A DNA stretch of 64,000 nucleotides from Escherichia phage KKP 3954, in sequence record OR067838.1; one strand, written 5' to 3'. Every line of letters begins with the position of its first letter. Within the stretch, counting starts at the first letter, position 1. The notes below the pieces were generated by a model, which saw nothing but the letters and a program-made list of their open reading frames with translations, was not told the origin of the DNA and made no database searches. Positions 1 to 12,151 of this stretch are shown here, one piece after another. Both the position numbers and the translations under genes were made by a program.

Positions 1-1100
1 TTTTCGGGCCGTCAGGTCCACGCAGCGACAATTCCCAAATATCATGAGAATGAGAATAATTATCATTCGTATTCAATGACTTATGCAAGGCTCATGCCAA
101 CATAGCGACAAGGTGGCCCACCTGATTATAAATCACACAAACACTTATTTATCAATGGCTTGGCAACTTCATCATATGACGGAACAATGTCAACTGATCC
201 CGCCCATGACAAGCAGACTATTATTTATATGAGAATGATTATTATTTAAACGTTTATTAGCATATAAACTAAAATAAATCAAGAATTTTCTGATTTTATT
301 TACGTTTAAGAGAAGGTGCTCAACATTCCCGCCTGTGGCGGTAACATTTCGCCCCCAAAATTATTGCTTTTTATCTTATTATGTGCATAGTGTGCAATGT
401 ATCGGAATGATGATAATCATCCTCCCATTGCCCCCATAATTATTGCCATGCTAATTGTTTCCTTACGTAATTACCACAATGATTATTGTTATTGCGCTAA
501 TGTTATGATCTTGGTAATTACATATAATGCTAATAATAAGCCAGCGCAATAAGTGTAAGCGTCATTACGCTTGCAATTATTGCAAGCTACGCAGTAACAA
601 GAAATAACCATCACCGATGGTTATGATTGTTGGGGTGTAGTTGGCTTATTATTAGCTCGCTACGTGTCCGGCGTAGCGTGCTAATGATGATCCTTGGAAT
701 GATTCGTTTTGTAATGATTTCATTCAGTCACTATTATGGCAATATACACTATTTTGCTAATAGTTGATCTTTTAATGGTTTCGTTTGTTATTGTTCGTTA
801 GTTGGTTGTTTTGTCGTGTTATCGTTATCTTGTTTAATATTCATCATGGTTTGATTGTTTGTCGTTATCAGTCATCTTGCTATTATTCCTTTGATTATGA
901 TTAGTTTGCTTATTGTTTTATGTTGTTTGTTGGTTAGTTGTTGCGAACTATTATCAACATTATAGTTATGCACTTATATTGAATAGATAATCAATGATAG
1001 ATGATAATGGTTATCATTGCACTAGAAAGGAGGTAAAAGGGTGTTTTTGATGGTTTGTTGTTGGTTGTTGATCGATTTTAACCGCTCTAAATAGCTCTCT
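1..1100. other. Long non-coding AT-rich region with strong T/G skew on the plus strand, short inverted repeats and operator-like palindromes; no ORF of 60 aa or more on either strand
   Basis: ORF track empty before 1120; low-complexity gtt/ttg/tta-rich sequence at 660-1000; hairpin-capable repeats at 540-700. Confidence 0.5.
45..67. promoter_or_regulatory. Palindromic operator-like motif ATGAGAATGAGAATAATTATCATT (Fur-box-like AATGAT-N-ATCATT core); related copies at 231-247, 405-424, 981-1020, 11607-11628, 11667-11685, 11695-11717
   Basis: Repeated near-palindromic motif seen directly in sequence, confined to the non-coding regions flanking the early gene cluster. Confidence 0.3.
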
Positions 1101-1221
1101 AACAGCCTGTTGCCCTGAGATGTATGGTTATTCGTTTAATGGTCGATTAGCTCGATACCGTGATTTATTCAGTTTTGTTCTGTGTCGGTTTTTCATAGGC
1201 GAAAGCTATCAACATTATTCG

Positions 1222-1251
1222 GGCAAAAAGAAAGGGCGCTTGATGCGCCCT
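1222..1251 (-). terminator. Rho-independent terminator (hairpin AGGGCGCATCAAGCGCCCT plus T-run on minus strand); identical copy at 6145-6173
   Basis: GC stem-loop followed by TTTCTTTTT on minus strand, just downstream of the stop of gene 1267..1650. Confidence 0.55.
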
Positions 1252-1266
1252 GGTATGAAATGTTAT

Positions 1267-1650
1267 TTACTGATAAGCCGGATCATTTGTTATATCAATC
1301 CAATGAGATAAATTAATTTTATTTTTTGCTTTCATTTTCTCGATCAAACGTTCGGCTAATGTCTCGGAACGAATATAAACGTTTTCGCTAAAATCTTGCC
1401 CCGTTTCATCGTCGATCATCTCGCGATATTCAATTTTCCCGATAAACGCGTGATTCAGCGCATAAGTTTTACCCGTGTACCAATTATGTAAATGAATCTC
1501 GCATTTATAATCATCGCTATAACCTTCGGTTGTTCTAACTTCAACCAGATCGCCTTTAAACACTGACAAGCACCACATAGGATCACGGTCTACAGCGCCG
1601 TTAAAGTCTTTACCGTTTACAGTCGCTGCCAGGTTGATGATATTGCTCAT
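1267..1650 (-). CDS. Hypothetical early protein
   Basis: ORF track 1267..1725; start moved to ATG at 1650 with AGGAA Shine-Dalgarno (SD); TTGACA-17-TATTAT promoter upstream. Confidence 0.55.
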   Translation of the reverse strand: MSNIINLAATVNGKDFNGAVDRDPMWCLSVFKGDLVEVRTTEGYSDDYKCEIHLHNWYTGKTYALNHAFIGKIEYREMIDDETGQDFSENVYIRSETLAERLIEKMKAKNKINLSHWIDITNDPAYQ

Positions 1651-1696
1651 GGTGATTCCTCGTTTACCGTTTAAAATTGTTTGCCCTACGTGATAA

Positions 1697-1725
1697 ATAA
1701 TAATGTAAGCGTGATCCGGTGTCAA
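1697..1725 (-). promoter_or_regulatory. Sigma70-like early promoter (TTGACA, 17 nt spacer, TATTAT)
   Basis: Consensus -35 and -10 hexamers read on minus strand upstream of gene 1267..1650. Confidence 0.5.
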
Positions 1726-2033
1726 TAGGTAGAATTGTAAAGATTTGATAGTTTATTCCTTTGATGTTTTGTTGTTTGATAGGCATTAGTTATCAATATA
1801 TAGCGGGGTCTTCCGGTGATTATCTTCCCCTGCTTCCAGGTGCCGCCCGTTCAATAAGTATAACAAAAAACAGAACAAAAACAAGTCCTGTTTTTCTTAT
1901 TTTTAAAACCAGTTGCCAACCGTTTCCAATAGGTCACTGACTACCAGGACAACACTGATCAGCACATATTCAACTATGAAGGGGATAAGCGCCAGCGTCG
2001 CTACTATGATCCCCATTGTGATGATTACCTTTC

Positions 2034-2324
2034 TCATTGTTGGCGGCTTACGTAGGCTTTACCGTTTACGGTCATCGGTATGGCCTCAAGGTCTGGATCT
2101 TCCTTAAGGTCGCGTGCAAGCTCACCGCAGCGGATACCCTCGAATCCGTGGTATTCTGTCTCGCCGTCCTTGAAAGTTTTAGCGGCAAGGCATAGGCGAT
2201 AATTAACACCGATCCGGTTTACTGCGTTGATGTCGGTTAGCGTGATAGATTCCGGCAACTCATTAGCCATTGCAGGCGCGTTAATACCAACAACCAGGGC
2301 AACTACTGCGATCATCTTTTTCAT
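2034..2324 (-). CDS. Small secreted or periplasmic protein (N-terminal signal peptide)
   Basis: ORF track; N-terminus MKKMIAVVALVVGINAPAMA is signal-peptide-like; SD present. Confidence 0.6.
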   Translation of the reverse strand: MKKMIAVVALVVGINAPAMANELPESITLTDINAVNRIGVNYRLCLAAKTFKDGETEYHGFEGIRCGELARDLKEDPDLEAIPMTVNGKAYVSRQQ

Positions 2325-2379
2325 GTTGTTTAACCTCTTCCTATTGCGTTTAATGGGGCGTTACCGCCCTGTTTATGGT

Positions 2380-2616
2380 TTATTGATTGATGTTATAATG
2401 AAAATTATTTTCTTCAATAGCTTTTAAAATAAAAGCCGTGATCGCTTTCGTGTCTACTTGTTCGAACGTATCAGAATAGCACCAATAATAATCATCCCCT
2501 ACTTTCGGCGGGTAAACCTGGACAAGGAGATCGCCACCTGGTTGATCTATAAGCTCAACATGCAAGCCGGATGATTCAGCGGTTTTAACGGCGTTTAATA
2601 CTGTTGCAATACTCAT
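2380..2616 (-). CDS. Hypothetical early protein
   Basis: ORF track; ATG start; GC hairpin leader upstream. Confidence 0.55.
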   Translation of the reverse strand: MSIATVLNAVKTAESSGLHVELIDQPGGDLLVQVYPPKVGDDYYWCYSDTFEQVDTKAITAFILKAIEENNFHYNINQ

Positions 2617-2660: not shown

Positions 2661-2960
2661 TTAGATCGCTGTTTCCAGTAGTTCGGCTAACGTCTTACCG
2701 CCTGATAGTTGGTCTAACGTTTGCTCTTCTGGCAAGAAATTAGCTGATATTAAACCGACTTGATTCCCTTTGTGCCAGTTAGCCTGGCGGATGATTCCAT
2801 CCTTTAAGGATTTTACCGCCATTGTGCAACCGTCGCCAAATGATTCATTTTTATGGTCCATCACTTCATAAGCGCCCAGCTTGCTGCTGTTAGGCACCAT
2901 TAACGCGAATACATCACCAACAACCAGTTTTTCTACGGTAACAATAGCGATAGTTTCCAT
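2661..2960 (-). CDS. Hypothetical early protein
   Basis: ORF track; ATG start; promoter and GC hairpin leader at about 2975-3040. Confidence 0.55.
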   Translation of the reverse strand: METIAIVTVEKLVVGDVFALMVPNSSKLGAYEVMDHKNESFGDGCTMAVKSLKDGIIRQANWHKGNQVGLISANFLPEEQTLDQLSGGKTLAELLETAI

Positions 2961-3041
2961 TTTACTTTCCTCATTATCGGCGGCACCATTGCCGCCCTAC
3001 GTGGTAAATATTAGCACACTGGCGATCTGTGTCAATACTTT

Positions 3042-3428
3042 TTATTCAATATAAATCAAATTATCTTCACCAATGTAAGCCGACACGTTCGGCATAAACT
3101 TAGCTGCATTGGTTAGGCGGTTCGCCGTGTTAGTGGTGTATATTTCAGGGCGATCCCAAAAGCCTACGCCGTGACTGTTACGGGTAAAATGTAAATCATT
3201 CCCGATCTGGTTGGCTGTTGCGCCGTCGCTCATTGCCTCAGAGATAGCGGCAAGATTAGCATTAATAAAGGCTGTTACATCCTGGGCGATCCGTTCGTCC
3301 GCGCTAGGAGAAAAATCATAATCGTCTAAGTTATCAATAAAATTACCTTCATGATCCCTTGCTGATTCAGCAAAAATAAAGGCTTCTTTATAACCGTTGA
3401 TGATTTCAATAATGATTTCTGTTTTCAT
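3042..3428 (-). CDS. Hypothetical early protein
   Basis: ORF track 3042..3446; probable ATG at 3428; overlaps upstream gene by about 22 nt. Confidence 0.5.
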   Translation of the reverse strand: MKTEIIIEIINGYKEAFIFAESARDHEGNFIDNLDDYDFSPSADERIAQDVTAFINANLAAISEAMSDGATANQIGNDLHFTRNSHGVGFWDRPEIYTTNTANRLTNAAKFMPNVSAYIGEDNLIYIE

Positions 3429-4410: not shown

Positions 4411-4695
4411 TTATTTTTTAATGTTTTGCCCTACAAAATTAATCATTTCCTTAAGCTGTCTCTCTGTCATGATCGTACCTGGTAATTCCTCTTTAATTTC
4501 TTGCGGTAAATAGATATTACCGTGCCAGGTTAACAAACAACCGTTTTGATCTTCGCAGATAGAATAAGAAAACATCCACTCGCAATCATTTTCAAGCTCC
4601 CAAAAACACAAAAAGTCTTCTTTCCCTAAGTTTTCAACGGTTAAGCATAATCCGCGACGTGCTGCATAATTAGTTAGGCTTTTTGTGATCTTCAT
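4411..4695 (-). CDS. Hypothetical early protein (Cys-rich)
   Basis: ORF track; ATG start; promoter and hairpin leader at 4700-4770. Confidence 0.55.
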   Translation of the reverse strand: MKITKSLTNYAARRGLCLTVENLGKEDFLCFWELENDCEWMFSYSICEDQNGCLLTWHGNIYLPQEIKEELPGTIMTERQLKEMINFVGQNIKK

Positions 4696-4755
4696 GATTT
4701 TTCTCTCTTCTTGTGAGCGGCATCATTGCCGCCCTACGAGATACACTTTACCAGA

Positions 4756-4884
4756 TTAAGCGGACTTGTCAAACTGTTTTTTCTTTTTCTTTGCTTCTAA
4801 CCGTCTAAGGTTACGGCTTGACTTATTGCGCAAGGCGCTTAGATCGTCGTACCCTTTCCATGCTTGCATATCTTTCGGATTCAT
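4756..4884 (-). CDS. Small basic protein (42 aa)
   Basis: Not in ORF track; SD AAGGGGA then ATG 4884; lysine-rich C-terminus. Confidence 0.4.
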   Translation of the reverse strand: MNPKDMQAWKGYDDLSALRNKSSRNLRRLEAKKKKKQFDKSA

Positions 4885-5695: not shown

Positions 5696-5854
5696 TTACC
5701 AACGTAAAACAAGTACGCCAACTGATGCAACGGCGGCGATCTCATGTAAGGAGGAAGGTCGCGCGGTGTCATAGTAGGTACCGATAATAGCAATAGCGGC
5801 AACGGCGGCAATATCGGTAATGATTTTTTCTTGTTTTGTTGTGATAGTGGTCAT
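5696..5854 (-). CDS. Hydrophobic small protein (52 aa)
   Basis: Not in ORF track; ATG 5854 behind promoter and leader at about 5870-5930. Confidence 0.4.
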   Translation of the reverse strand: MTTITTKQEKIITDIAAVAAIAIIGTYYDTARPSSLHEIAAVASVGVLVLRW

Positions 5855-5939
5855 AATGTTTTTCTCTTTTATGTGGTCGGGAACTATTCCCGCCCTATGC
5901 GATACATCTTATCAGACCTGGTTATGGTGTCAACCATTT

Positions 5940-6125
5940 TTAAAGATATTTTATATTAATAACGTTTTCAGGTTTAACCTTGTTGTGATGTGCATCAACA
6001 TAGATCAGACCATCGTCAGAAAAGCCCAGGATCACGCCCTGCGCAATAAAACCGTATTCGTCACGGTAACGCACGGCTATTTTTAATGTTGCGTTGTAGG
6101 CTGTTTTAAGCTCGTTTAAAGTCAT
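5940..6125 (-). CDS. Hypothetical early protein
   Basis: ORF track; ATG 6125 with SD AGGGGAT. Confidence 0.55.
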   Translation of the reverse strand: MTLNELKTAYNATLKIAVRYRDEYGFIAQGVILGFSDDGLIYVDAHHNKVKPENVINIKYL

Positions 6126-7701: not shown

Positions 7702-7929
7702 TCAGATTAATTCGTCCAGGCATAACAAGCGATCAACGTTGAGATCGGTTAGGCTAATCGTCGGCACCTGGTAGGATTCGATATACTCAACGCTTGCATA
7801 TTCCCCAAAATTAGCAACAGCCCAGTTATTCAAGATTTCACATACATCATTAATCTTTTTGTTTGTTACAACTGCTACAACCTGGGAATAGCCAACGGTG
7901 CCGGATACGCGAACAATATTGATAGCCAT
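7702..7929 (-). CDS. Hypothetical early protein
   Basis: ORF track; ATG 7929; hairpin leader at 7953-7972. Confidence 0.55.
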   Translation of the reverse strand: MAINIVRVSGTVGYSQVVAVVTNKKINDVCEILNNWAVANFGEYASVEYIESYQVPTISLTDLNVDRLLCLDELI

Positions 7930-7983
7930 AATCTTTAATCTCTCTGTTGTGAGCGGGAAACCATTTCCCGCCCTATGCGATAC

Positions 7984-8011
7984 ATCTTACACTAATTTTA
8001 AACGTTGTCAA
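7984..8011 (-). promoter_or_regulatory. Early promoter of the conserved family (TTGACA, 16 nt spacer, TAAGAT), followed by GC stem-loop leader at 7953-7972
   Basis: Hexamers read on minus strand; same architecture in more than 20 copies. Confidence 0.55.
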
Positions 8012-8020
8012 CTGTTTTTA

Positions 8021-8260
8021 TTACATTCCAACCATCGCGGCACGGATCGCAGTAGTGCTATATTTGAAACCGTCTGGAGTTTTATCTTGTCCAGTTTGTT
8101 CCAGAAAAAGCATCATATCCCGCGCCGCATCATTACGATTAGCATTAGCGTTAATAAAATCCAAGGCCAACCGATACAATGATTCATCGTTATTAATCCA
8201 AAGGCTTACATTCCAATGAGTTTTGTTTTTGTGACCGTTGTAAGTTTTAGTAATAGCCAT
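8021..8260 (-). CDS. Hypothetical early protein
   Basis: ORF track; ATG start; promoter and leader upstream. Confidence 0.55.
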   Translation of the reverse strand: MAITKTYNGHKNKTHWNVSLWINNDESLYRLALDFINANANRNDAARDMMLFLEQTGQDKTPDGFKYSTTAIRAAMVGM

Positions 8261-9352: not shown

Positions 9353-9434
9353 TGTAAGCCTCTTGTATAATTTCACTATGAGCGGCACCATTGCCGCCCT
9401 ACGTGGTAAATATTATGCTAGTGGCGGCGATATG

Positions 9435-10254
9435 TCAAAGACTATTTTCAAAGTTTTCTAGGGCGATCCTTTTTTCTTCCTCTGTCGGCTGATAATCAGG
9501 AAAAGCATCAACACACAACAACGGCGGGATCTCTTCATACTCTTCCTCTTCCGTTGTCTCCTCGTCTTCCTCCTGGGCTATGGCTGCAATTTTGGCTAAT
9601 TTTCTCTCCGCTTGAATCAGTTTACCATCAAATACGTTTTTTGCCATGTTGTAAGCGGTCCAGGTGATGCGCTTACTTTCTAGTGCTTCATCAAGCGCCG
9701 CTATCTTGCTGGGGTATTCATCCAGGACACGAAAAGCCGGATCAACTTTGTATACAAGGGATTATCTTTCGCACCGTCGCTCGCATCTTCCGCACTGGAT
9801 AAATCAGCGTTACCATTTGCCAGCCAACCAGGGCGCACATAACGCGCTTTTACGTTGCCGTTACTACGTGCTAATCTGTTACCTATTTGCTCCCCGCTAT
9901 AGCCCGTGGATTCATCGACAAGATAATCAGGAATGATGCGCGGATCATCTGCTTCATGTTTTACCCAAGACTGGATCACATATTCGCGGCCCATATTAAC
10001 CACCTTTTTTTCAACAATCGGCATACTTTAAAAAGACTTGCTGAATCCTTGCAAGGGTAGAAAGATGTACGATAGTCACGTACGCCAACCTTGCGGATCT
10101 CGATGTTCTCGCATGTTGTTTGATCAAAAATATTTATTTCATCACGCCCCCTTATATAAACATAATGGGGATGTATTAACGCATACTTTGCTAATCTGTA
10201 AAAAGCGTTATCCTTGAACGCGATCACGTGACCTTTTAATTTGATGTAAAACAT
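9435..10254 (-). CDS. Hypothetical early protein with acidic C-terminal domain; one gene split into three track ORFs (9976..10254, 9701..10024, 9435..9647) by two apparent 1-nt deletions (T7 run 10005-10011; GTATAC 9750-9755)
   Basis: Only the first ORF has promoter, leader and SD (ATG 10254); the internal ATGs lack an SD; reading continues without stops after a -1 shift at each junction; C-terminus is Glu/Asp-rich. Confidence 0.5.
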
Positions 10255-10330: not shown

Positions 10331-10603
10331 TTAAAGCAAAAACGCTACATCTTGCGCTTTTAGTGTAGTATCAACCATTTTTGGGCTTTTATAATCAACA
10401 AAACGCGCGGTTTTTTCAATAGCAAAACCGAGATAATCTTGTTTATTGAATTTACATTCTTTCTTAAATGTTTCCCGCGCCACGGTGATCGCTGCGTCCA
10501 GGGATAAACGCCCGTCAATGTTGATATTTGCGAAAGATCCGCCACCGCTCATAGGTTTACCAGTGGTGCCAGCTACGATCATTGTTGCGCTATATGATGC
10601 CAT
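10331..10603 (-). CDS. Hypothetical early protein
   Basis: ORF track 10331..10663 starts inside the leader hairpin; start moved to ATG 10603. Confidence 0.5.
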   Translation of the reverse strand: MASYSATMIVAGTTGKPMSGGGSFANINIDGRLSLDAAITVARETFKKECKFNKQDYLGFAIEKTARFVDYKSPKMVDTTLKAQDVAFLL

Positions 10604-10626
10604 GATTATAATCTCTCTTCTGTTGT

Positions 10627-10650
10627 GAGCGGCTGGACCATTCCGCCGCC
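10627..10650 (-). other. Conserved GC stem-loop in the 5-prime leader of early transcripts (example copy; family consensus GGCGGCAATGGTGCCGC with compensatory variants)
   Basis: More than 20 copies between promoter -10 and SD; stem changes are compensatory (e.g. CGGGAACTATTCCCG, CGGGAAACCATTTCCCG). Confidence 0.6.
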
Positions 10651-10661
10651 CTATGTGATAC

Positions 10662-10689
10662 ATCTTATCAGGTTGTTGGTTGTTGTCAA
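10662..10689 (-). promoter_or_regulatory. Early promoter of the conserved family (TTGACA, 16 nt spacer, TAAGAT)
   Basis: Hexamers on minus strand upstream of leader hairpin 10627-10650. Confidence 0.55.
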
Positions 10690-10695
10690 TACTTT

Positions 10696-10893
10696 TTATT
10701 CTATTCCTGCAATCTGATTAACGCGTTTGCATTTTGTAGCGTGCTGGTCTTCTGTAATTACTCCCATTTCTAACAGTGAATCAATGAAAGATAAAACCGT
10801 TTCATGATCATCCTGGGGATGACTGAACTCAGTAAAACCGTTTACTACCACGTTTATTTGTCCAGCTTTCGCCACAATGTGCAATGTTGCCAT
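10696..10893 (-). CDS. Hypothetical early protein (about 65 aa)
   Basis: ORF track 10696..10983; start moved to ATG 10893 after the leader hairpin; SD GGAG. Confidence 0.5.
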   Translation of the reverse strand: MATLHIVAKAGQINVVVNGFTEFSHPQDDHETVLSFIDSLLEMGVITEDQHATKCKRVNQIAGIE

Positions 10894-11349: not shown

Positions 11350-11378
11350 TTGACAAGCCCAGGGATCGGGCTTATACT
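11350..11378 (+). promoter_or_regulatory. Near-consensus sigma70 promoter (TTGACA, 17 nt spacer, TATACT) followed by a GC-rich structured segment of about 110 nt
   Basis: Hexamers seen directly; same GGG(A)CTTATACT -10 context recurs at 46759-46787. Confidence 0.5.
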
Positions 11379-11719
11379 GTTTTACATACAGAAGAGGAAG
11401 CGCCACCCCACGGCGTAAAGGCGGGGCTAACATACCAGGGCGCTGGTTGGAAGGTTGATCGCCGGTAGGCTGGGCGCTATATATTTGTAAAGAAATGTAA
11501 AGATAAAATAATCGCTTGCTTTCCTGGCTGGATCTGTTATTCTTATTACATGGCGAGGGGATACGGGAACGCGAGACAAACACCGCCCCTGCGCGTCATT
11601 CTCTAAATGAGAATGATTATCATTTACCTTATTGAATAAGAATCAATCTCATTTATAAACTTAAATGCGAATCATTATCATTTGCATTTCCATATGAGAA
11701 CTCTTCTCATTCTCACCTG

Positions 11720-11960
11720 CATAAATTTTTGTAAACTTTAAATTTTGCTTTTGTATTTTCATTTTTGTAAAAGCAAAAAAACTTTAAATACTGTGGGCGC
11801 GCAAAATTTTTAAAATTTTCCTTGACTTTTGAGTTTTGTTTTGTATCTAACATTTTAAGATAATTTTCCTAAACTTTAAATTTTGGTTTTCAACTTTCAC
11901 TTTTGTAAATTCTTAAAAAGTTTAAATAATTTGAGGAATTTTTGAGATAACAGGTAGTGG
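11720..11960. repeat. AT-rich region with two imperfect direct repeats of about 65 bp (each with AAACTTTAAATTTTG and TTTTGTAAA) and a TTTGAGATAAC direct repeat
   Basis: Repeats read directly in the sequence; no ORFs; lies between the two minus-strand gene clusters. Confidence 0.45.
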
Positions 11961-12060
11961 TAATTTGAGATAACCTTTAATCTTGTTGGTAAACCTTCAG
12001 GAACCCACCTAGATCGAATCCTAGAAAGGTCAACTGAAAAAGACAAGTGTTTGTATAGGA

Positions 12061-12096
12061 CAAAATAATAGGCTCTCTACGGTGCTGTAGGAGCCT
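12061..12096 (-). terminator. Rho-independent terminator downstream of the NADAR gene
   Basis: Hairpin GGCTCTCTAC..GTAGGAGCC followed by T-rich tract on minus strand. Confidence 0.5.
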
Positions 12097-12151
12097 TATT
12101 TCTGTGCTACAAAGTGGCACCTTTGTTCTAAAAATGAAAAAAGTTAAAATA

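Follow-up and report, generated by a model that had tools for sequence, protein, structure and literature searches.

The left end of a 64,000-nucleotide (nt) stretch of the genome of Escherichia phage KKP 3954 (OR067838.1; one strand, hereafter the window, whose positions serve as coordinates throughout) is best read as one end of a linear phage genome. Positions 1-320 would be one copy of the short direct terminal repeat (DTR) carried by a linear genome of the genus Phapecoctavirus, and positions 321-1266 the gene-free DNA adjoining it; together with the end-processing mechanism proposed below, this reading is given a probability of about 0.6. The most likely function of the region is to provide cis-acting signals for the processing and packaging of concatemers.

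By sequence, the source phage is a Phapecoctavirus of the subfamily Stephanstirmvirinae, one of the phAPEC8-like myoviruses with genomes of ~150 kb, and in blast searches positions 1-1300 were 90-97% identical to 58 Phapecoctavirus records. Four lineages were compared: Phapecoctavirus, the phiWec group, Justusliebigvirus (phi92) and the Klebsiella relatives. When both ends of the records of Schickermooser, Mt1B1_P17 and WPEC1 were examined, exact direct repeats of 329, 328 and 328 bp, respectively, were found, mapping to window positions -8 to 320. The terminal repeat of Schickermooser has been reported as 328 bp (Korf et al. 2019, PMC6563267). In the record of phi92, left and right terminal repeats of 343 bp are annotated, followed by 1.1 kb of non-coding DNA and then by gp248, and in BME3 a DTR of 342 bp was mapped with PhageTerm (PMC12210895); the BME3 record starts with AACGCGATTTTC and its repeat ends at GTAGGCT|CAACAAAT. 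Many independent assemblies of relatives also start or end inside this repeat.

The boundaries of the repeat are shared more widely than its contents. In relatives, the left end lies 8-9 nt before window position 1 (TAACGCGA|TTTTCGGG), so that an earlier note on this DNA, made from its letters alone, had set the start of the feature slightly too far to the right in placing it at position 1. The right boundary, AGAAGGTGCT|CAACATTC (311-328), falls between 320 and 321. TAACGCGA opens the repeat in the four lineages and AAGAGAAGGTGCT closes it (window 320), with CAACA next. The boundaries GTGCT|TAACGCG and GGTGCT|CAACA are common to phi92 and BME3, and TAACGCG and GCT|CAACA are kept in all four lineages, whereas the interiors of the DTRs of those lineages are only 54-66% identical to the window; within them, an alignment of six repeats brings out conserved blocks. 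The ends are thus fixed and sequence-specific, as in phages of the T7 type, with the same boundaries in four lineages and in the PhageTerm-mapped BME3; the presence of the same sequence at both linear ends is seen in the relatives, as the window holds one genome end only.

Therefore, the DTRs of the relatives and the shared boundary sequences support a genome terminus at this place, which is the first of the options raised in the earlier note (a terminus or packaging region) and the outcome of the comparison with related termini that it had suggested. This homology is strong evidence that the window starts 8 nt inside the physical left end and that 1-320 is one DTR copy. The terminus itself is already published for this phage group. 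In the papers and records on Stephanstirmvirinae DTRs that were examined, the length of the repeat is given and its internal anatomy is absent. Compared with the DTRs of phi92, Schickermooser and BME3, which are homologous, have the same boundaries and are likewise followed by ~0.9-1.1 kb of non-coding DNA and a minus-strand gp248-like gene, nothing essential differs, except that the window is without the first 8 nt of the repeat. The order of the parts (DTR, fold, C-poor spacer, palindrome, terminator, gp248-like gene) is also the same in Justusliebigvirus and in the Klebsiella relatives. As a practical consequence, the annotation and orientation of the genomes of this phage group can be anchored to TAACGCG and GCT|CAACA.

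The gene-free character of the region, which the earlier note had described for 1-1100, was confirmed: 1-1119 contains no open reading frame (ORF) of at least 60 amino acids (aa) on either strand. No stretch of that kind in the 64 kb is longer, the runner-up having 568 nt (11584-12151), and no frame of the six stays free of stops for more than 171 nt within 1-1100. The non-coding DNA extends to 1266, where it is adjoined by a minus-strand gene (1267-1725), a homologue of phi92 gp248 that is 91% identical to the phi92 version. In TSP7_1, a relative with a circular assembly, the gene-free gap is ~1.6 kb long and reaches ~290 nt to the left of window position 1, and the genes on either side of it are all on the minus strand. 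A scan of the window for tRNA and tmRNA genes found none.

The gene beside the terminal region is mosaic: that of the window is of the phi92 type and not of the phAPEC8 type, and in phAPEC8 and phiWec179 an unrelated gene takes the place of the gp248 homologue. The non-coding DNA at 529-1232 is nonetheless 93-98% identical to that of these two phages.

At the centre of the DTR, a pattern scan revealed an IHF consensus site on the plus strand at 150-162 (TATCAATGGCTTG; consensus WATCAANNNNTTR). The 64 kb contain two such matches, compared with 6.9 expected. In nine phages in which its position was followed, there is a single IHF consensus site per DTR, 0-4 nt off the geometric centre, in which the consensus bases are kept and the four N positions vary, making it a good candidate for an IHF site as far as sequence goes. 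The other match in the window, at 1738-1750 on the minus strand, lies just upstream of a near-consensus promoter, TTGACA-17-TATTAT (1725-1697), which in turn directly precedes ORF 1267-1725, with some overlap with the annotated start of that ORF. A similar purine-rich sequence ending in GTGCT stands ahead of both DTR boundaries (the left one as seen in relatives) and may be the cut-site motif.

In the mechanism proposed here, replicating genomes would form head-to-tail concatemers with one DTR copy at each junction. Terminase would cut at two look-alike sites 328 bp apart, ...GTGCT|TAACGCG and ...GGTGCT|CAACA, while host IHF, bound at the candidate site in mid-repeat, would bend the DNA and bring both cut sites together. 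The repeat would then be copied, leaving each packaged genome with a copy at both ends. A boundary module, a set of GCTAAT repeats and a 150-nt fold, all described below, would act as terminase-binding or end-processing signals of the end that is packaged first. The packaging order is taken by analogy with T7: this end is proposed to be packaged first because small promoter-led genes, which are probably early, lie at the opposite end. The cutting and duplication of short terminal repeats is still only modelled, even in T7, and the two look-alike cut sites, the IHF site midway between them and the covarying single-stranded fold beside the repeat offer handles by which it could be tested.

A known parallel in layout is the concatemer junction of T7 and T3, which has pac sites, flanking arrays of short repeats and a hairpin-ended intermediate. 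Both systems have a short exact DTR (160-230 bp in T7/T3) with sequence-specific ends, short palindromes and repeated motifs in or beside the repeat, and, some hundreds of bp in from the end opposite the small promoter-led genes, a structure made of inverted repeats. However, there is no sequence similarity, the promoters here are of the host type instead of T7 phage RNA polymerase promoters, a 150-nt three-way junction with long-range pairing takes the place of a simple palindrome, the IHF site in mid-repeat is not a feature of T7, and the phage is a 150-kb myovirus. In the cos region of lambda, cosN is accompanied by cosB, with the IHF site I1 and the terminase-binding R sites. The likeness here is an IHF consensus site between the cut sites, near repeated candidate binding sites, at an end proposed to be packaged first. 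In contrast, lambda has 12-nt cohesive ends from nicks 12 bp apart, whereas the cuts predicted here are 328 bp apart and the interval between them is duplicated.

The earlier note had also suggested a nick or injection-control region, for which nothing was found in support. A region of the T5 type, in which DNA entry would pause after the first segment, is very improbable here: the repeats and inverted repeats near a genome end give a general likeness, but the repeat of T5 relatives is roughly 10 kb long and carries pre-early genes, whereas the present one is 328 bp long and gene-free. Besides, it is gene 3' ends that lie at this end, the small promoter-led (probable early) genes being at the other, no nick consensus was identified, and no similarity to T5 was found by blast.

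Directly beyond the right boundary of the repeat, comparison of the relatives delimited a boundary module (321-367) made up of CAACA, the hairpin CCGCC-TGT-GGCGG (329-341) and TTCGCCCCC. The sequence of the hairpin varies between phages. There is one copy of the module in the window, two in TSP7_1 and two to three, in tandem, in the Klebsiella relatives, with GTGCT before each copy. Tandem modules were located in L003 (6318-6376), L018 (1034-1170) and L013 (828-964), and the units shared are not the same from one phage to another, a pattern suggestive of recombination or of mis-cutting at the boundary of the repeat.

Conservation of the non-coding DNA in the region is highest in a folded element on the plus strand at 529-678, which starts ~210 nt inside from the terminal repeat. 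According to an alignment of ten sequences analysed with RNAalifold, this element is a three-way junction of ~150 nt. A long-range helix, P1 (529-542/643-656), surrounds the hairpin H1 (546-561/568-583) and the helix P2 (585-592/635-642), with H2 (604-612/616-624) inside P2 and H3 (658-665/671-678) directly after P1. The short inverted repeats that the earlier note had picked out are all present, AAGCGTCATTACGCTT at 557-572, TTGCAATTATTGCAA at 571-585 and CGCTACG/CGTAGCG at 658-664/672-678; in the alignment they are not chance occurrences but parts of this one fold, with compensatory changes across the four lineages.

The fold comprises 53 pairs, 14 of which show compensatory double changes, and standard pairs occupy 99.8% of the 527 cells of the named structure. 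None of 500 column shuffles reached the observed pairing or covariation, and shifting the partners by 1-3 columns dropped the pairing to 23-54%. The element was found in 132 phage records at 133 places, which amounts to essentially one per genome at the same place, and it is a single copy in the window. Members of Phapecoctavirus show 95-99% identity in it and the phiWec group 91%, while the values fall to 76-79% for Justusliebigvirus and 74-77% for the Klebsiella relatives. A distant blast search seeded with the Klebsiella-phage version returned the same 132 records, with no extension to rV5-like phages, and a pattern scan of IMG/VR gave four contigs only, all from the same phage group. The genome map of rV5 shows an unexplained 'non-coding' box (PMC3606486). 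When the fold was compared by blast with plasmids and with 5,426 E. coli genomes, no match was obtained; therefore, it has not been borrowed from a plasmid single-strand initiation (ssi) site or from a host small RNA.

Several signals set the plus strand apart. There are ~51 G.U cells at ten pair positions and not one A.C cell; the folding energy is -78.8 kcal/mol on the plus strand (z -9.8) and -62.3 on the minus strand, a difference of 16.5; and the covariance model scores 170 bits on the plus strand compared with 24 bits on the minus strand. Because of these strand-specific G.U cells, energies and scores, we infer that the fold acts as a single-stranded nucleic acid of the plus strand, either RNA or DNA, and not as a double-stranded protein site or a cruciform. 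Within the packaging mechanism, one option would be a snap-back in the style of T7, in which P1 would place a 3' end of the plus strand, at ~656, onto 529-542 and synthesis would proceed leftwards through the repeat. Hairpin-ended DNA with a terminal repeat has been reported in T7 infection, according to a passage in PMC4281155 that cites Chung and Hinkle (1990).

The same data could be read as a gene for a stable non-coding RNA at 529-678, transcribed from the plus strand and trans-acting, be it in regulation, as a decoy, against host defence or, in the manner of phi29 pRNA, in packaging, with the rest of the region providing promoter, flanks and DTR; this is a possibility to be taken seriously, although on balance we consider it improbable. 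In its favour, the covariation on the plus strand passes through G.U intermediates (the series CG/UG/UA) and includes four invariant G.U pairs, folding energy and model score are likewise better on the plus strand, and in Phapecoctavirus a TATAAT at 523-528 abuts P1. The closing helix, three-way junction and two arms also resemble pRNA. However, sigma-70 scans in three lineages revealed neither an enrichment of promoter-like sites nor a positionally conserved promoter upstream of the fold, no terminator with a U-tract was found after H3, and in H1 and H2 the loop sequences are free to vary and show no complementarity between loops. A search of window positions 1-2500 against Rfam, at E values up to 1, gave nothing at 529-678 and only a chance snoRNA match at 132-179 (E 0.92); phi29 pRNA is among the Rfam families. 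Papers on Stephanstirmvirinae transcriptomes were not found in a limited open-access search.

Set beside phi29 pRNA itself, the fold falls in the same size range for a structured element (roughly 120-170 nt), lies at a similar distance of some hundreds of nt from a genome end, and has the same plan, in which the 5' and 3' parts pair into a closing helix and a three-way junction bears two hairpin arms. It differs in having no Rfam match and no evident loop-loop complementarity, and in belonging to a phage with packaging of the terminase type. As a tentative extension, less probable than the packaging reading of the present region, it could be that all Stephanstirmvirinae have at their genome ends a new class of 150-nt three-way junction, acting as single-stranded plus-strand nucleic acid in the making of these ends, either as a packaging RNA in a myovirus that uses a terminase or as a snap-back DNA primer for duplicating the terminal repeat, together with an IHF-induced U-turn that pairs the cut sites 328 bp apart. 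In the limited open-access literature searched, we did not find a description of the IHF-centred repeat, the operator-like palindromes, the GCTAAT repeats or the covarying fold.

The GCTAAT motif is found as iteron-like direct repeats on the plus strand between 450 and 761, with starts at 450, 496, 529, 680 and 756. These five copies compare with 0.23 expected, and none of 1000 local shuffles reached five; the Klebsiella relatives have additional copies. The composition of the DNA is also unusual. The T+G fraction reaches a maximum of 0.687, compared with a mean of 0.511 (sd 0.040, z 4.4; 300-nt windows over the 64 kb), and the seven highest of these 300-nt windows all start between 601 and 901. 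The C fraction has its minimum for the whole window, 0.09, at 751-1050, a segment with a GC of 0.29 (mean 0.394), and GTT occurs at 8.0 per 100 nt in 700-1100 compared with 2.3 genome-wide. The T/G skew that the earlier note had placed at 660-1000 is thus real, but extends over ~600-1150, and its label of low complexity applies to ~770-960 and not to the remainder of 1-1100. The search for tandem repeats in the region detected a weak 7-nt TTGTTGT run at 913-942 only.

The T/G-rich and C-poor core on the plus strand (771-960) is without a conserved ORF. Compared with phiWec179, it is 94% identical with no insertion or deletion, whereas the DTR of the same pair is 66% identical; either constraint or a recent exchange of the 529-1232 block could account for this. 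Between genera the sequence of the core is not kept, although the poverty in C of the plus strand is found in all lineages (C 9-14%).

A phage replication origin, also among the suggestions of the earlier note, could in principle combine these elements: the iteron-like GCTAAT repeats would bind a phage initiator or the primase-helicase, the AT-rich, C-poor stretch would unwind, and on the displaced strand or the lagging-strand template the plus-strand fold would signal initiation in the way known from ColE1 or G4. We consider this unlikely. The five direct repeats, the fall of GC to 0.29 with a local reversal of GC skew and the strand specificity of the fold would fit it, and the G/T excess of the plus strand is the leading-strand skew that would be expected for forks starting from the left end. 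GTT, which is so enriched here, is a template site of T4-type primases. However, DnaA boxes were not found in 1-1500 (scan for TTWTNCACA), so that the arrangement of a DnaA-dependent origin, with such boxes by an AT-rich unwinding element, is not seen, Chi sites are likewise absent from the region, and CTG, the site of the E. coli primase, does not occur in 700-1100. In addition, nothing similar to the fold occurs in the plasmid and chromosomal sequences compared, there is no adjoining initiator gene, and the T/G core is kept between genera in its low C only. A position flush with the physical end points more directly to the processing of that end, and no positive support for an origin was obtained.

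In the DTR, the IHF site is flanked by two palindromic boxes. Box A, an array of Fur-box-like palindromes at 46-68 (GAGAATGAGAATAATTATCATTC), keeps its position in all lineages, and Box B, also Fur-box-like, lies at 228-246 (TATGAGAATGATTATTATT). Of the 19 bp of the E. coli Fur consensus (GATAATGATAATCATTATC), 16 are matched by window positions 46-64, and the phi92 form of Box B, TGATAATGATTATCA, is a perfect Fur motif of the 7-1-7 kind (TGATAATnATTATCA). With up to two mismatches to the 13-bp Fur core, eight sites were counted in 1-1100 compared with ~0.3 expected (0 of 500 local shuffles). By these matches, the boxes are candidate Fur sites. The Klebsiella relatives, however, have a symmetric variant, TGAGAATCATTCTCA, which suggests that another dimeric protein could read the boxes. 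At the position of Box B, the Klebsiella phages KP2025 (L017 1119-1140) and KP13-26 (L018) have CCACTGTATAAGTGAACAGTGG, which fits the LexA-box pattern CTGT-N8-ACAG. One position in the DTR thus appears to hold different host-repressor-like operators in coliphages and in Klebsiella phages.

A further Fur-like palindrome, GATAATGGTTATCATT (1003-1018), covers the -10 and start region of a promoter-like site found by promoter scan on the plus strand (TTGAAT-18-GATAAT, 979-1008; whole feature 979-1021), and both have counterparts in phi92 and in the Klebsiella relatives. Within the packaging model, the Fur-like palindromes, LexA-like in the Klebsiella phages, would be operators through which host or phage repressors act on promoters in or next to the repeat. 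If Fur and LexA truly read them, the first transcription of these lytic phages would be tied to the iron status of the host or to DNA damage. No paper linking Fur boxes to phage termini was found in a limited open-access search.

These palindromes, and the orientation of the genes, are also what could be expected if the DNA beyond the DTR served as transcription punctuation, insulating the minus-strand operon from the next promoters in concatemers, with the palindromes as operators. The minus-strand RNA, rich in A and C and poor in G, would be a loading site for Rho that backs the intrinsic terminator of gene 1267-1725 (1251-1233), and the T/G skew would be partly mutational, caused by changes of C to T on a strand that is often single-stranded. 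The flanking genes are indeed all on the minus strand, a gap separates the terminator from the next gene block, C exceeds G on the minus strand in all lineages, and the Fur-like boxes overlap promoter-like hexamers and recur in a second intergenic region at 11.6 kb. Despite this, punctuation leaves unexplained both the plus-strand-specific fold of 53 pairs and the IHF site centred in the repeat, a drifting spacer is at odds with a T/G core of 94% identity and no indel beside a DTR of 66%, and the other gaps between genes in the window all stay below half the length of this one; as the account of the region, it appears doubtful. The RNA, origin and punctuation explanations are not mutually exclusive, either with each other or with the packaging reading.

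Several points weigh against the packaging reading. Invariant G.U pairs such as those of the fold are seen more typically in functional RNAs than in hairpins of DNA, which favours the RNA explanation of the fold, the T/G-rich core is not explained by packaging, and the direction of packaging is drawn from analogy only. Moreover, a second cluster of Fur-like palindromes is found at 11606-11685; therefore, the boxes look regulatory in general rather than specific to packaging.

Small protein genes hidden in the region, such as those annotated in WPEC1, FKP3 and PsgM04F, are scarcely credible. Coding sequences (CDSs) of 30-107 aa are annotated here in some records, and a strong Shine-Dalgarno sequence, AAGGAGGT (1027-1034), precedes an ORF of 17 codons at 1041-1094. 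On the other hand, the plus strand of eight relatives has stops at the same sites in all three frames, and the 107-aa CDS of WPEC1 is owed to a single lost stop. The start of the mini-ORF is lost in phiWec179, its stop is lost in phAPEC8, Mt1B1_P17 and WPEC1, and phi92 lacks both the Shine-Dalgarno sequence and the mini-ORF. In view of the conserved stops and of the unstable start and stop, neither the T/G-rich stretch nor the mini-ORF is regarded as coding. The 'hypothetical proteins' of 30-107 aa in the terminal regions of WPEC1, FKP3, PsgM04F and phi1_175008 are none of them conserved and look over-predicted, and the small CDSs annotated here in several GenBank records would be better removed. 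A 63-aa ORF on the plus strand at 1120-1311 is interrupted by a stop in phi92.

Two further features lie at the right of the region. A non-coding block at 1145-1232 is conserved between genera, with 82% identity to phi92 and 94% to phiWec179. It is followed at 1233-1251, on the minus strand, by the intrinsic terminator of gene 1267-1725, which is annotated as a terminator in Schickermooser and phAPEC8.

Elsewhere in the window, the second intergenic region, at 11584-12151, has Fur-box-like palindromes at 11606-11627 and 11664-11685, after which a 72-nt repeat with much AAACTTTAAATTTTG occurs twice (11724-11795 and 11862-11933). Between 2950 and 10960, at least eight copies of an intergenic cassette precede small minus-strand ORFs, examples being 2956-3050, 4682-4761, 5842-5948, 7920-8026, 9353-9452 and 10594-10704. 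Read on the minus strand, the cassette consists of TTGACAC, ~17 nt, a TAATAT-like hexamer, a GC-rich hairpin (GGGCGGCAATGGTGCCGC or CGGGAATAGTTCCCG), a purine-rich ribosome site and ATG, and it resembles the promoter-plus-stem-loop cassettes of T4-type phages. Finally, the plus strand at 11350-11480 has a sigma-70 promoter of consensus type (TTGACA-17-TATACT) ahead of a potentially folding, GC-rich stretch without a tRNA, which could encode a small RNA.

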